From Escherichia coli (GTDB lineage: Bacteria > Pseudomonadota > Gammaproteobacteria > Enterobacterales > Enterobacteriaceae): a stretch of 64,000 bases of DNA. The notes below the pieces were generated by a model. That model had not been told where the DNA came from. It saw only the letters and a list, made by a program, of their open reading frames with translations, and searched no databases. Made by a program: the position numbers and the translations under genes. The stretch lies in the NCBI RefSeq assembly GCF_030013205.1, contig NZ_CP122648.1, one strand, 5' to 3'. Of this stretch, positions 8,292 through 42,108 are shown piece by piece (within the stretch, counting starts at the first letter, position 1; each line of letters opens with the position of its first letter).

Positions 8292-8327
8292 TCTTCAGCC
8301 CGACGAACTGTTTCGCCGGGCTGATTT

Positions 8328-9175
8328 TTAGGGTTCCTGACGTAAATAAATAGCCCGATAACAAATACTCACCAGCACTGCACCGCCGATAATATTACCC
8401 AGCATCACCGGGAGCAGATTGGCGGTAATAAAATGGCTGACCGTCAGTGCCGGAAAATTGTCTGCGCTACTGTGCGCCAGTTGCCAGAAGGGGGAGGGGC
8501 GAAATGGCGAATGGCAATGGCGAACGGAATCACAAACAAATTGGCGATACAGTGCTCAAAGCCACTGGCGACAAACAGGGTGATGGGCAAAATCATGGCG
8601 ACGATTTTGTCGCATAATGAACGCCCGCAATAACTCATCCACAGCGCCAGGCAAACCATCAGATTGCACATAATGCCGAGGCTGACAGATTCAGTAAATG
8701 TATGATGCATTTTGCCCTCGGCGCAGTGTAAAACCGCGACTCCCCACATCGCGTTTTCACTCATCACCAGCCCGGAAAACCAGATTAACAAACTGAAACA
8801 GGCAATACCTGCCAGATTACCGCAGGCCACCAGAAGTGCATTAATCAGCCATGTTCGCCAGCTAATAACGCCCCGACTTTTTGCCATCACCGTCATTACC
8901 GACGAGGTGAACAGGCTGGTGCCGCAAACCGCCAGCAAAATAAAGCCGAGTGTAAAGCAAAGGCCACCCACCAGATGGGTTAATGCCTGTGAAGACGGGG
9001 CATCGGCGATAACGGAAAGGTAAAAAGTAAATCCGATCGCCATAAACACGCCAGCGGACATCGCCATTAAAAAGACCGACACTTTGCTGCGGGCAATTTT
9101 ATGGGCGGCAATCCGTTCAGCGATTGCCGCTTTTCTGGCGCTCAACTGCAAGTCGAAAGAGAGTTTGTTTCTCAT
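8328..9175 (-). pseudogene. focB: formate channel FocB (FNT family) with apparent -1 frameshift near 8485..8495
   Basis: ORF stops at 8444 after 243 aa; the conserved FNT C-terminus (FWQLAHSSADNFPALTVSHFITANLLPVMLGNIIGGAVLVSICYRAIYLRQEP) continues in another frame to stop at 8328. Confidence 0.65.
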
Positions 9176-9196
9176 GAATACTCCTGCAAAAGCAGA

Positions 9197-11209
9197 TTAC
9201 AACACCTCGCGAACCGAGATCCCCAGACGCTGCATTCGTGACAGCAGCGTGGTGCGCTTCATCCCTAATCGTGTCGCCGCGCCACGGGGCCCGGCAACAA
9301 TGCCATTGGTTTCTCGCAATACCTGAACAATGCGCTGACGTTCTTCTTCGTCATTCTCTGGCGTCGTCGGATGCAGCAACTGTGCCATTGAACTGCGAAG
9401 CGCTGAATCTTCATTTAGCGTCGGCAGTAAACGGCTTTGTCGGACATTAAGATGTAAATTCAGACTGTTACCGCGAGTCAGTAGTACCGCCCGCTCAATC
9501 ACGTTTTCCAGCTCGCGCACGTTGCCCGGCCAGTCCCACGACATCAACTGGCGTAGCGCCTCGGTCGGGATGGCGTCAATTGCGCGATTCATATGGCGCG
9601 CCATTTTTTGCGTGAAATGTTTTGCTAAAAGAGGGATATCTTCCGGACGGTCGCGTAGCGGGGGCAATTCCAGTGGGAAGACATTCAGGCGATAAAAGAG
9701 ATCGCTGCGAAACTGGCGATCTTCAACCATTTGCCACAAATCACGGTTGGTGGCGGCAATGACTCTGACATTTACCGGGATCGTTCTACTCCCGCCGAGA
9801 CGCTCAATCTCCCGTTCCTGCAATACGCGCAGCAGTTTAGGCTGAAGTTCTAACGGCAGATCGCCAATTTCATCGAGAAACAACGTGCCGCCATCGGCAA
9901 TTTCAAAACGGCCACGATGGGTATTAATCGCACCAGTAAATGCCCCTTTGTCATGACCGAATAACTCACTTTCCAGAAGACTGGCGGGGATGGCAGCGCA
10001 GTTGATTTTGACCAGTGGCTTGTCGCGTCGTGGGCTAAGTTGATGGATCGCTCTGGCGATCACCTCTTTGCCGGTTCCGGTTTCACCACAAATCAACACC
10101 GTACTGTCGCTCTTCGCCACAATATCTACCTGCTGGAGCAAATCTTCCATTGCCTGGCTTTGATAGATAATGTCACCGACGCCCAGATTCGAAAGGAGCT
10201 GCTCGCTAAGCTGGTGGTTTTCTTGCTGCAAGCTTTCCTGCAAATCGGTCATGCTGCGCCAGGCATCGGCATTGCCAACGGCAATAGCGATGCGATCGGC
10301 AATATGTTGTAGTAGCTGGCAGTTTTCCTCACTAAAGAGAGTGGAAGAGGTATGCGCCAGCAACAATGCGCCCGGTGTATGGTTGCCAAAGGTGAGCGGT
10401 ATAAGGAGCGCAGATTCGCAGCCGTTAGATGCAAGTAAGTGTAATAACGGGTCGCGTTGCCAGAGAAACAGATCGTCTGCACGGTGCGTCAAGGTCGGTT
10501 GTCGGGTTTGTAGCGTTTGTGTCAGCAATACACTTTCGCCAGGCATACAGCGTGGCAGACACGCACAATGTGAGGCAGAAAGATCGCTGCACCACAGGCT
10601 GAACTTCTCGTTCTTTCGATGATCGCCCAGTACCATACTGACTGAAGCCAGACCGAAAAAATGATGGATCTCACGAGCGACGTCAGCGATCAGATCGTCG
10701 AGATCAAGATGTGACAACACTGCATTAGTGATATCCACCAGTACCCGATGATGATCGCGATCTTTCTCCAGCAAACGCAGCGCCACCTGCTGTTCTTCAT
10801 CATTGAGCCATGATTGCAGAACCGGAGTGATTATGTGTGCCAGCCAGTTAAACAGTGTGCAATCCTGGGGAGTAAAACGACTGCCGTGGGTGCGAATAAA
10901 GCGTAGCTCCGCCATTCCACTACTGCCGAGAAGGACGGCGTGGCGCGAATAATCGACCATCTCACCCTGATACTCTGTTGTTGCCGTCACATCGCTGCCA
11001 TCATCATGGTAGCGGTAATAGAAGTTGCTTTTGAGAACATGCAGTTCAATAAGTTGTACCGGGCTGAACGGCGGCGGCAGCGGGATGAAGGCGCGTAATA
11101 AAGACGCCTTGCCGTGTTTCTGCGCTAACCGCTCCGCGAGCATTCCGTTTACCGCTTCAATTGTTATTCCTTGCGGCGGGGCAAACATCGCCTCGTCTGA
11201 CATAGCCAT
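9197..11209 (-). CDS. hyfR: sigma-54-dependent transcriptional activator of hyf operon
   Basis: ~670 aa, GAF-like N-terminus, AAA+ with GETGTGKE and GAFTGA motifs, C-terminal HTH. Confidence 0.9.
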
Positions 11210-25361: not shown

Positions 25362-26070
25362 TGCACAGAAAACCCCCAGCTAGGCTGGGGGTTCCGGAAA
25401 GCTTTCAGCTTTGAGCCAGTTATTAAAACCCCTTTTGATTTGTTAAAACACCTTGCGGTCTGGCAACTGCAAGTGTCAAACAAGAAATCAAAAGGGGGTC
25501 CCAATGGGGAACGAAAAGAGCTTAGCGCACACCCGATGGAACTGTAAATATCACATAGTTTTTGCGCCAAAATACCGAAGACAGGTGTTCTACAGAGAGA
25601 AGCGTAGAGCAATAGGCAGTATTTTGAGAAAGCTGTGTGAGTGGAAAAGCGTACGGATTCTGGAAGCTGAATGCTGTGCAGATCATATCCATATGCTTGT
25701 GGAGATCCCGCCCAAAATGAGCGTATCCGGGTTTATGGGATATCTGAAAGGGAAAAGCAGTCTGATGCTTTACGAGCAGTTTGGTGATTTGAAATTCAAA
25801 TACAGGAACAGGGAGTTCTGGTGCAGAGGGTACTACGTCGATACAGTGGGTAAGAACACGGCGAAGATACAGGATTACATAAAGCACCAGCTTGAAGAGG
25901 ATAAAATGGGAGAGCAGTTATCGATTCCCTATCCGGGCAGCCCGTTTACGGGCCGTAAGTAACGAAGTTGGATGCAAATGTCAGATCGTGTGCGCCTGTT
26001 AGGGCGCGGCTGGTAAGAGAGCCTTATAGGCGCATTTGAAAAACCTCCGGCTATGCCGGAGGATATTTAT
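25362..26070 (+). mobile_element. IS200-family (IS200/IS605) insertion sequence, ~0.7 kb; boundaries approximate
   Basis: Perfect palindrome cccccagc-tag-gctggggg at 25373..25391, RBS-occluding pairing ccccttttgatt(25429..25440)/aatcaaaagggg(25486..25497), 152-aa Y1/HuH transposase, subterminal hairpin cctccggc-tat-gccggagg at 26044..26062. Confidence 0.8.
25504..25962 (+). CDS. tnpA: IS200 transposase TnpA (HuH Y1 family)
   Basis: 152 aa MGNEKSLAHTRWNCKYHIVFAPKYRR...HIHMLVEIPP (HuH motif)...catalytic Y region; ORF-track upstream extension discarded. Confidence 0.9.
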   Translation: MGNEKSLAHTRWNCKYHIVFAPKYRRQVFYREKRRAIGSILRKLCEWKSVRILEAECCADHIHMLVEIPPKMSVSGFMGYLKGKSSLMLYEQFGDLKFKYRNREFWCRGYYVDTVGKNTAKIQDYIKHQLEEDKMGEQLSIPYPGSPFTGRK

Positions 26071-36315: not shown

Positions 36316-36335
36316 GCCAATCGTGGAGAAAAAAA
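36316..36335 (-). promoter_or_regulatory. BaeR-box-like sequence in acrD promoter
   Basis: Minus strand TTTTTTTCTCCACGATTGGC resembles the reported BaeR box TTTTTCTCCATDATTGGC. Confidence 0.5.
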
Positions 36336-38314: not shown

Positions 38315-40296
38315 ATGAATCGTTTTATTATGGCCAACAGTCAGCAATGTCTGGGTTGTCATGCTTGTGAAATCGCCTGTGTCATGGCTCACAATGATGA
38401 ACAACATGTCTTGAGCCAACACCATTTTCATCCCCGAATTACGGTTATCAAACATCAGCAGCAACGTAGTGCAGTGACCTGTCACCATTGCGAAGATGCG
38501 CCCTGCGCCCGTAGCTGCCCTAATGGCGCAATCAGCCACGTTGATGACAGCATTCAGGTCAATCAGCAAAAGTGTATTGGCTGTAAATCCTGCGTGGTGG
38601 CCTGTCCATTTGGTACGATGCAAATCGTCCTGACACCCGTCGCGGCGGGCAAAGTAAAAGCCACGGCGCATAAATGCGACCTTTGTGCAGGGCGCGAAAA
38701 CGGTCCTGCCTGTGTCGAGAATTGCCCGGCGGACACGCGCTGCAACTGGTCACTGACGCCGCACTCTCTGGCATGGCGAAATCCCGCCGCTTGCGCACCG
38801 CACGTCAGGAGCATCAACCGTGGCATGCCAGTACCGCGGCACAAGAAATGCCGGTAATGAGTAAAGTCGAGCAAATGCAGGCAACGCCCGCGCGTGGCGA
38901 GCCGGATAAACTGGCGATTGAAGCGCGCAAAACCGGTTTTGATGAAATTTATCTGCCATTCCGTGCCGATCAGGCACAACGGGAAGCCTCGCGCTGCCTT
39001 AAGTGCGGCGAGCACAGCGTTTGTGAATGGACCTGCCCGCTGCATAACCATATTCCACAGTGGATTGAACTGGTGAAAGCCGGAAACATCGACGCCGCCG
39101 TCGAGCTTTCTCACCAGACCAACACCCTGCCGGAAATTACCGGACGCGTTTGTCCGCAAGACCGTTTGTGTGAAGGTGCCTGTACTATTCGCGATGAGCA
39201 CGGCGCAGTAACTATCGGCAACATTGAACGCTACATTTCAGATCAGGCGTTGGCGAAAGGTTGGCGTCCTGACTTAAGCCTTGTCACCAAAGTGGACAAG
39301 CGGGTGGCGATTATCGGTGCGGGTCCGGCAGGGCTGGCCTGTGCGGATGTTCTGACCCGCAATGGCGTGGCGGTGACGGTGTACGATCGCCATCCAGAAA
39401 TCGGTGGCTTGCTCACTTTCGGCATTCCTTCTTTCAAACTGGATAAATCCCTGCTGGCACGCCGTCGGGAAATCTTCAGCGCGATGGGGATTCACTTCGA
39501 ACTCAATTGTGAAGTGGGTAAAGATGTCTCTTTGGATTCGCTTTTGGAACAATACGACGCGGTCTTCGTTGGCGTAGGCACTTACCGTTCCATGAAAGCG
39601 GGTTTACCCAATGAAGATGCGCCGGGCGTTTATGACGCCCTGCCGTTCCTCATCGCCAACACTAAACAGGTGATGGGACTCGAAGAGCTACCGGAAGAGC
39701 CGTTTATCAATACCGCCGGACTCAACGTCGTGGTACTGGGCGGCGGCGACACCGCGATGGACTGTGTGCGTACTGCGCTGCGCCACGGCGCGAGTAACGT
39801 CACCTGCGCTTATCGTCGTGATGAAGCTAACATGCCAGGCTCGAAGAAAGAGGTGAAGAACGCCCGCGAAGAGGGGGCCAACTTCGAATTTAACGTCCAG
39901 CCGGTGGCGCTTGAGCTGAATGAACAAGGTCACGTTTGCGGGATTCGTTTCCTGCGTACGCGTCTTGGCGAGCCGGATGCCCAGGGGCGTCGGCGTCCAG
40001 TACCGGTGGAAGGCAGTGAATTTGTCATGCCAGCCGACGCGGTGATTATGGCGTTTGGCTTCAATCCGCACGGGATGCCGTGGCTGGAGTCGCACGGTGT
40101 AACGGTAGACAAATGGGGCCGCATCATCGCGGATGTGGAAAGCCAGTACCGTTATCAGACCACGAATCCGAAAATCTTCGCCGGTGGTGACGCCGTGCGT
40201 GGTGCGGATCTGGTGGTTACCGCAATGGCAGAAGGACGTCATGCGGCACAGGGGATTATTGACTGGCTGGGGGTAAAATCAGTCAAATCTCACTGA
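38315..40296 (+). pseudogene. aegA: anaerobically expressed oxidoreductase AegA (ferredoxin + GltD-like flavoprotein) with apparent 2-nt insertion frameshift near 38733..38737
   Basis: Two overlapping ORFs in different frames (38315..38857 and 38674..40296) together span 1982 nt; N-terminal part has 4 CxxCxxCxxxCP motifs, C-terminal part GltD/NAD(P)-binding; junction reads ...ENCPAD|acac|...ALQLVTDAALSG. Confidence 0.65.
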
Positions 40297-41064: not shown

Positions 41065-42108
41065 ATGCGCTATCGCATTTTCCTTCTCTTTTTTTTCGCT
41101 TTGTTGCCGACGTCTTTGGTGTGGGCGGCACCAGCGCAACGGGCGTTTTCCGACTGGCAGGTCACCTGTAATAACCAAAACTTCTGCGTGGCGCGTAATA
41201 CGGGCGATCATAACGGACTGGTGATGACCCTGAGCCGCAGCGCCGGGGCGCATACCGATGCCGTTTTACGTATTGAGCGCGGCGGGTTGAAGTCGCCGGA
41301 TGCGTCTGAAGGGGAGATAGCGCCACGGCTGCTGTTAGATGGTGAGCCGTTGGCATTAAGTGGTGACAAGTGGCGGATTTCACCATGGTTATTAGTAACG
41401 GATGATCCGGCAACCCTCACCGCGTTTTTGCAGCTGATTCAGGAAGGGAAGGCGATCACCTTACGCGACGGCAATCAGACCATTTCTCTGAGTGGCTTAA
41501 AAGCGGCGTTGTTGTTTATAGATGCTCAGCAAAAGCGCGTTGGCAGTGAAACCGCGTGGATAAAGAAAGGGGATGAACCGCCGCTCAGCGTACCGCCCGC
41601 GCCTGCGCTGAAAGAGGTCGCGGTGGTTAACCCAACGCCGACGCCACTCTCACTCGAAGAACGCAACGATTTGCTGGATTATGGAAACTGGCGGATGAAT
41701 GGTCTGCGCTGCTCGCTTGATCCGTTACGTCGTGAGGTGAATGTCACTGCGCTGACCGATGATAAAGCACTGATGATGATTAGCTGTGAGGCAGGGGCCT
41801 ATAACACCATTGATTTGGCATGGATTGTGTCGCGTAAAAAGCCGCTAGCCTCGCGCCCGGTTCGGTTGCGTTTGCCGTTCAACAATGGTCAGGAGACGAA
41901 TGAACTGGAACTGATGAACGCAACATTCGATGAGAAATCGCGTGAACTGGTGACCTTAGCGAAAGGGCGCGGATTAAGCGATTGTGGCATTCAGGCGCGC
42001 TGGCGCTTTGACGGTCAGCGTTTTCGCCTGGTGCGTTACGCCGCAGAACCCACCTGCGATAACTGGCATGGGCCAGACGCCTGGCCCACGTTATGGATCA
42101 CCCGTTAA
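41065..42108 (+). CDS. ypfG: DUF1176 periplasmic protein of unknown function
   Basis: 347 aa, cleavable signal peptide (LLPTSLVWAAP), several Cys. Confidence 0.8.
   Translation: MRYRIFLLFFFALLPTSLVWAAPAQRAFSDWQVTCNNQNFCVARNTGDHNGLVMTLSRSAGAHTDAVLRIERGGLKSPDASEGEIAPRLLLDGEPLALSGDKWRISPWLLVTDDPATLTAFLQLIQEGKAITLRDGNQTISLSGLKAALLFIDAQQKRVGSETAWIKKGDEPPLSVPPAPALKEVAVVNPTPTPLSLEERNDLLDYGNWRMNGLRCSLDPLRREVNVTALTDDKALMMISCEAGAYNTIDLAWIVSRKKPLASRPVRLRLPFNNGQETNELELMNATFDEKSRELVTLAKGRGLSDCGIQARWRFDGQRFRLVRYAAEPTCDNWHGPDAWPTLWITR

Follow-up and report, generated by a model that had tools for sequence, protein, structure and literature searches.

A one-base homopolymer frameshift of focB in an Escherichia coli genome, with a long-read consensus error as its favoured origin

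The focB gene in a 64,000-nt stretch of Escherichia coli DNA (the window, to which all positions refer) carries what is, essentially certainly, a one-base homopolymer frameshift: a run of five C residues (C5) stands where the ancestral allele has six (C6). The event is of an already known and already annotated kind, the homopolymer frameshift pseudogene of focB. We consider it probable that the bacterium itself is not mutated here and that the consensus of a long-read (nanopore-type) assembly gives this homopolymer one base too short.

The focB locus and its lesion

focB is the final gene of the hyfABCDEFGHIJR-focB operon, with hyfA-J and then hyfR upstream and the convergent gene yfgO downstream. 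The features of the locus are as follows.

8328..9175, minus strand: whole focB pseudogene, about 847 nt versus 849 nt including the stop codon in the intact allele
8444..9175, minus strand: open 5' part of focB, an ORF of 243 codons with ATG at 9175 and TGA at 8446..8444
8490..8494, minus strand: focB lesion, C5 on the coding strand (G5 on the plus strand) versus ancestral C6
8328..8489, minus strand: out-of-frame 3' remnant of focB, FWQLAH...TM6...AIYLRQEP, with the original TAA at 8330..8328
9197..11209, minus strand: hyfR, the sigma-54 activator gene directly upstream of focB, from the ORF list and the annotation of ETEC1701 and ETEC4079

The identity of the gene is secure because the hyfR/hyfA-J/yfgO synteny, a Pfam match and an alignment to the structure of FocA all point to focB. 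The gene follows hyfR directly as the last of the hyf operon, and residues 1-225 of its product are identical to the reference FocB (WP_001244732.1, 282 aa; E. coli K-12 b2492 type), a FocA paralogue whose gene closes the hyf operon with the same synteny. Against the Form_Nir_trans profile (PF01226; gathering cut-off, 34.6 bits) the 243-aa product scored 181.9 bits and the repaired 282-aa protein 217.6 bits, and the repaired protein aligned to the FocA structure 3KCU over residues 6-280 (E = 3.7e-86).

The original prediction had proposed a homopolymer frameshift that truncates focB, and its elements held up on comparison. Translation reproduced the 243-aa ORF on the minus strand (9175..8444) with exactly the predicted coordinates and tail (...APPPSGNWRTVAQTIFRH, then the stop), and a second minus-strand frame translates to PSPFWQLAHSSADNFPALTVSHFITANLLPVMLGNIIGGAVLVSICYRAIYLRQEP and ends at 8328 (TAA at 8330..8328). 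The run ccagaaggggg at 8484..8494 of the plus strand, named as the likely place, is the site of the lesion: with the window, ETEC1701 and B1.H1.18 aligned at the DNA level to the intact 118UI allele (WP_001244732.1, 282 aa) as the reference, the sole difference between the window and 118UI is one C missing at 8490..8494, in the coding-strand context GCCCCT-CCCCC-TTCTGG. Restoring one base gives the expected focB of 282 codons, and the six-C allele encodes WP_001244732.1. Relative to the reference, the window thus has one C fewer in the C6 run, and 18 out-of-frame residues take the place of the last 57. The frame breaks after Pro225, the last residue to match the intact protein, and an 18-residue tail of the SGNWRTVAQTIFRH type follows before TGA at 8446..8444 ends translation.

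The out-of-frame remnant has a residue-for-residue alignment to FocA in 3KCU (about residues 227-281) across TM6 and the C-terminus, so the frameshift is not a product of chance; this alignment also agrees with the FNT-type C-terminus that had been read in the shifted frame. Two adjacent frames jointly align with the full-length homologue, with a single-base gap against intact alleles, which makes the locus a frameshifted pseudogene in the sense used by PGAP, and PGAP itself calls the same allele 'frameshifted'. In ETEC1701, focB has the same coordinates and an identical sequence and is labelled 'formate transporter FocB, frameshifted'; intact 282-aa focB is present in ETEC4079, K_EC180 and 118UI.

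Effect of the frameshift on FocB

By alignment with FocA, the C5 product is without the last 57 residues of FocB, which comprise the TM5-TM6 loop, all of TM6 and the C-terminal Y-L-R motif. Coverage of the Form_Nir_trans profile is 7-238 of 240 positions for the intact protein versus 7-208 of 240 for the 243-aa product (its residues 20-222). Full-length FocB shares with FocA (3KCU) the SGFEH(C/S)IAN segment, TM6 and Y-L-R, whereas the product encoded in the window ends before TM6 and is not a complete six-helix protomer, which in FocA-like members includes TM6 and the Y-L-R/K motif. FocB is listed among the proteins that bear the Y-L-R motif, and the role of the motif has been described: in FocA, removal of seven C-terminal residues including Y-L-R left membrane protein and pentamers undetectable, and removal of six abolished formate import (PMC5572259). 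From these experiments we infer that the 243-aa product would fail to form a functional pentameric formate channel and should be unstable or inactive, and on this ground focB as written would be a pseudogene. No gene of the operon follows focB, and yfgO is convergent, so a polar effect is not expected.

The idea that FocB has a natural, functional isoform of 243 aa was judged the least probable of all the readings considered here. Although 243-aa 'formate transporter' entries exist in NCBI nr, they are the same frameshift allele, so the prediction's own test, a reference FocB that ends at residue 243, turned up C5 copies and no natural short form. The absence of TM6 and Y-L-R from this protein, the disabling effect that deletions of only 6-7 C-terminal residues already have in FocA (PMC5572259) and the treatment of the C5 allele as a pseudogene by PGAP all argue against an isoform of this kind.

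Programmed recoding, by -1 frameshifting of the ribosome or by slippage of transcription at the C-run, would restore full-length and perhaps regulated FocB. Judged from sequence alone, re-pairing of tRNA-Pro from CCU to CCC, one base back, would give the wild-type A-P-P-P-F-W. However, the canonical X XXY YYZ heptamer is absent from the zero frame, and the 92 nt downstream have a fold no more stable than that of shuffled sequences (z = +1.08; 178 of 200 shuffles were at least as stable). A run of five C residues is, moreover, well below the lengths known to give efficient transcriptional slippage. Finally, the C5 state is derived and rare (9 of about 3,642 complete genomes) and is not conserved in the manner of recoding sites. 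We therefore regard recoding as very improbable.

Distribution of the C5 allele across E. coli

A megablast search found the focB region (8300..9200) in 4,298 of 5,426 complete E. coli genomes; the region is absent from the other 1,128, about a fifth. ETEC1701, B1.H1.18 and B1.H1.1 matched it at 100% over 901 nt, and the other matches listed span 902 nt. In a census of complete E. coli genomes with a 67-nt query that demanded the C5 state, nine of about 3,642 genomes gave an exact match (ECZP248, ETEC4085, ETEC4089, ETEC1701, ETEC1702, B1.H1.18, B1.H1.1, NCTC_13148 and FCI56), and the remaining matches listed show a one-base gap. C6 is thus the state in about 99.7% of focB-carrying complete genomes, and the comparison with reference E. 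coli genomes, which the original prediction had recommended, came out in its favour, with about 3,630 of 3,642 complete genomes having C6 and the 282-aa form. PGAP already labels focB 'frameshifted' in all nine C5 genomes, and the lesion lies at exactly the same run as in the window. These nine genomes represent other lineages or sub-lineages, however, and several of them carry the allele clade-wide, with independent confirmation, whereas the window has it as a singleton. Nothing specific on frameshifts of focB was found in the literature.

In a collection of 15 billion proteins, the exact 243-aa protein occurs on 426 contigs (NCBI, ENA and Logan). Eight loci were retrieved for it, each about 2% diverged from the window. 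Loci L009, L013 and L014 have no indel relative to the window beyond one intergenic base and are therefore clean assemblies; L015 and L008 have many homopolymer or motif-linked indels, typical of a noisy long-read consensus. The 20.7-kb locus of L015 (GCA_949812205.1) has 35 indels relative to the window, and nearly every gene in it is fragmented. Many of these are insertions of 1-2 bases beside CCGG-containing motifs (for example, GCCGGT) and the rest are homopolymer deletions, a pattern that looks like basecalling error linked to methylation motifs.

A 14-kb MAFFT alignment of all carriers separated them into at least ten lineages. Over 14 kb, 5 SNPs separate ETEC4085 from the metagenome scaffold L014, and both are C5. 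ETEC4089, ECZP248 and L008 are 3-5 SNPs apart and have frameshifts of hyfC and hyfD in common; ETEC1702 also shares C5 and the hyfC/hyfD frameshifts with ECZP248 (China). L010 and L012 represent 12 places, and hyfD, hyfF and hyfI are broken there too. Since at least ten lineages carry C5, and several are backed by independent projects, the C6 run is a real and recurrent slippage hotspot.

Four of the nine complete-genome carriers come from a single nanopore-only project, and we had considered this clustering to be strong evidence for an artefact. We have largely withdrawn that argument because the alleles of ETEC4085, ETEC4089 and ETEC1702 are shared with independent sources and are real clade alleles.

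Lineage of the window

The best matches over the first 25 kb of the window are Belgian and Dutch pig ETEC/STEC genomes, K_EC180 (Korea), O139:H1 strains and EC556, EC571 and EC581 (Japan). Over all 64,000 nt the window and ETEC4079 differ by no mismatch and by one gap, which is the focB base; ETEC4079 is C6. We tabulated variable sites in the window, ETEC4079, K_EC180, EC556, ETEC1701, ETEC6333 and ETEC6334, with CFSAN018748 as the outgroup. The window and ETEC4079 are united by a derived state at 13315 and by an AC insertion at 38733-4, and a derived state at 21249 adds K_EC180 to this pair. ETEC1701, the only other C5 member of the lineage, is not a sister of the window and groups with ETEC6333 and ETEC6334 through positions 2034, 21615, 37139 and 45901. 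These SNP groupings separate the two C5 members within an otherwise C6 lineage, and C5 in the window and in ETEC1701 therefore reflects two independent events. A single ancestral deletion common to both, which was considered, is ruled out by polarization of the SNPs with K_EC180, EC556, ETEC6333/6334 and CFSAN018748. Draft assemblies of the lineage with 282-aa FocB comprise three representatives that stand for 24 contigs. When short-read C5 assemblies of the window's sub-lineage were sought by way of a lineage-specific HyfD fragment, all of the representatives listed, in which similar places are collapsed, had intact FocB.

The AC insertion lies in aegA, a gene for formate-dependent uric acid utilization (plus strand, 38315..40296). 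The two bases (38733..38734; GGACACGCG versus GGACGCG) fall in codon 140 and shift the frame into a stop at 38855..38857. Among the genomes compared, only ETEC4079 shares the insertion; K_EC180, EC556, ETEC1701, ETEC6333/6334 and the outgroup all have an intact aegA. Because the site is not a homopolymer, the insertion is probably a genuine marker of the sub-clade.

The lineage also has an IS200C-family transposase gene between bamC and purC (25504..25962), which is present in all members and whose site is empty in CFSAN018748.

Homopolymer errors in related assemblies

The nearest genomes to the window belong to a project that used nanopore R9.4.1 data only; the ETEC genomes were assembled from R9.4.1 reads with Trycycler or Flye and polished with Medaka, without short reads (PMC10151945). 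Within this set, ETEC6333 and ETEC6334 are sisters that share 24000 G>A and have chromosome sizes within 5 bp of each other. A shortening of A8 to A7 at 36329, in the acrD-narQ spacer, is nevertheless found in ETEC1701 and ETEC6333, with A8 in ETEC6334, and the same distribution holds for T8 to T7 at 41089, which leaves ypfG 'frameshifted' in ETEC1701 and ETEC6333, with T8 in ETEC6334. ETEC6334 has a private T8 to T7 change that 'frameshifts' bepA. These homopolymer lengths contradict the SNP tree of ETEC1701, ETEC6333 and ETEC6334, from which we conclude that the consensus sequences of the nanopore project are noisy. In all, there were six homopolymer deletions in four genomes over 50 kb each, none of which is present in K_EC180, EC556 or the outgroup. 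The shortened bepA, 36329 and ypfG runs in the sister assemblies are likely to be recurrent consensus errors that lead to spurious pseudogene calls.

The bepA T8 run (6995), the A8 run at 36329 and the ypfG T8 run (41089) are full length in the window. The bepA T8 to T7 'frameshift' is also found in L008 and L015, besides ETEC6334, and bepA of NCTC_13148 is annotated as frameshifted (by annotation alone).

The window itself is from a long-read assembly, as judged by its crossing of the IS200C copy: short-read drafts of the lineage (L025 and L026) end at this copy, and the window runs through it unbroken. If a consensus error is the origin of the lesion, the long-read consensus would have miscalled C6 as C5 at 8490..8494, and the isolate itself would probably keep a normal C6 and a 282-aa focB. 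The residual errors of R9.4.1/Medaka assemblies are likewise single-base homopolymer deletions that give spurious 'frameshifted' genes, as at bepA and ypfG, or fall in the acrD-narQ spacer. They differ in that the run in the window is 6 nt of G/C, whereas those of the sister genomes are mostly 8-nt A/T runs.

Viewed as a candidate contingency locus with a phase-variable homopolymer, the focB tract is only 5-6 nt long; its length differs twice in the window's lineage, but each time the assembly concerned belongs to, or neighbours, a nanopore-only set in which homopolymers are noisy. As a rough estimate, real slippage at the focB run on so short a branch (0 SNPs per 64 kb) has a probability of the order of 1e-3, a figure that allows the run a rate tens of times the base-substitution rate; a consensus miscall, also roughly estimated, would affect about 1-5% of G/C 6-mers in such assemblies. 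If the source of the window is nanopore-only, the odds for an error exceed ten to one; if short reads were used in polishing, the mutation is real and the reading as an artefact collapses. Three observations weigh against an error: none of the six 8-nt A/T runs in the window, a type of run that the sister assemblies miscall most, deviates from the lineage consensus, the assembly being otherwise clean; C5 is certainly real elsewhere, in independent projects and clean assemblies; and with hyfD already a pseudogene, a real loss of focB would meet no opposing selection. The original prediction had allowed for either slippage or sequencing error, and this too is borne out.

Decay of the hyf operon and the case for a real deletion

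A second lesion in the operon is as follows.

17903..17905, minus strand: premature TGA at codon 148 of hyfD (gene at 16907..18346), which is TGC (Cys) in the outgroup CFSAN018748

This stop is found in every lineage member examined (Belgium, the Netherlands, Korea and Japan). PGAP reports an 'internal stop' in hyfD of ETEC4079, ETEC1701, K_EC180, EC556, ETEC6333 and ETEC6334, and the gene is intact in CFSAN018748. Public assemblies contain the resulting 147-aa HyfD fragment in 99 blocks. Being common to all members and to these 99 blocks, the stop is a genuine lineage-wide nonsense mutation, and by Cys148-stop the Hyd-4/FHL-2 operon is already disabled in the lineage. FocB has been described as a FocA paralogue with a possible role in bringing formate back into the cell for FHL-2 (PMC11841067), and the genome-reduced strain DGF-298 had its hyf-focB cluster removed with no comment (PMC10652928).

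Other carriers of C5 have further lesions in the operon. In ETEC4089 and ECZP248, hyfC, hyfD and focB are all frameshifted; NCTC_13148 has an internal stop in hyfF and a shortened hyfD; and in L010/L012 hyfD is broken by another C6 to C5 change (window-equivalent position 18253), with hyfF and hyfI broken too. Decay of hyf genes is thus under way in several lineages.

The main alternative to a consensus error, less probable in our view but a serious contender, is that C6 to C5 in the window is a genuine and very recent replication-slippage deletion and that focB is a true, newly formed pseudogene. Its loss would be tolerated owing to the hyfD stop and to FocA, which remains as the main formate channel. 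That selection would not oppose loss of focB where hyfD is a pseudogene throughout the lineage fits this view, as do the 426 public contigs with the exact truncated protein, the at least ten well-separated C5 lineages (several with independent projects or clean assemblies), the parallel decay of other hyf genes in some of them, the 1,128 of 5,426 complete genomes that are without the focB region altogether and the correct length of all long A/T runs in the window. However, the deletion stands alone against ETEC4079, whose sequence is otherwise identical over 64 kb, it would require a second independent origin of C5 inside one lineage, and both C5 members of the lineage belong to or neighbour nanopore-only assemblies in which homopolymer noise is demonstrable. 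In a broader form of this alternative, which we think improbable, the C6 run is a genuine, recurrent hotspot of inactivation, focB loss and the hits in hyfC, hyfD, hyfF and hyfI reflect an ongoing and possibly selected decay of hydrogenase-4/FHL-2, and the window shows a fresh, real event.

Implications

A consensus error remains our favoured origin of the lesion, and the main relevance of the finding is to annotation hygiene: the absence of one base is enough for a transporter gene of 282 codons to be called a pseudogene. Our results suggest that the focB pseudogene call in the window is not to be trusted without reads. If C5 in the window is not a consensus error, it would be a neutral or harmless recent mutation, and the consequence of a real deletion would be small, since the operon is already disabled by the hyfD stop, FocA remains and about a fifth of complete E. 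coli genomes lack the cluster. Across the species, the same run has been struck independently in at least ten lineages, which makes focB a small documented case of homopolymer-driven decay of a cryptic operon.
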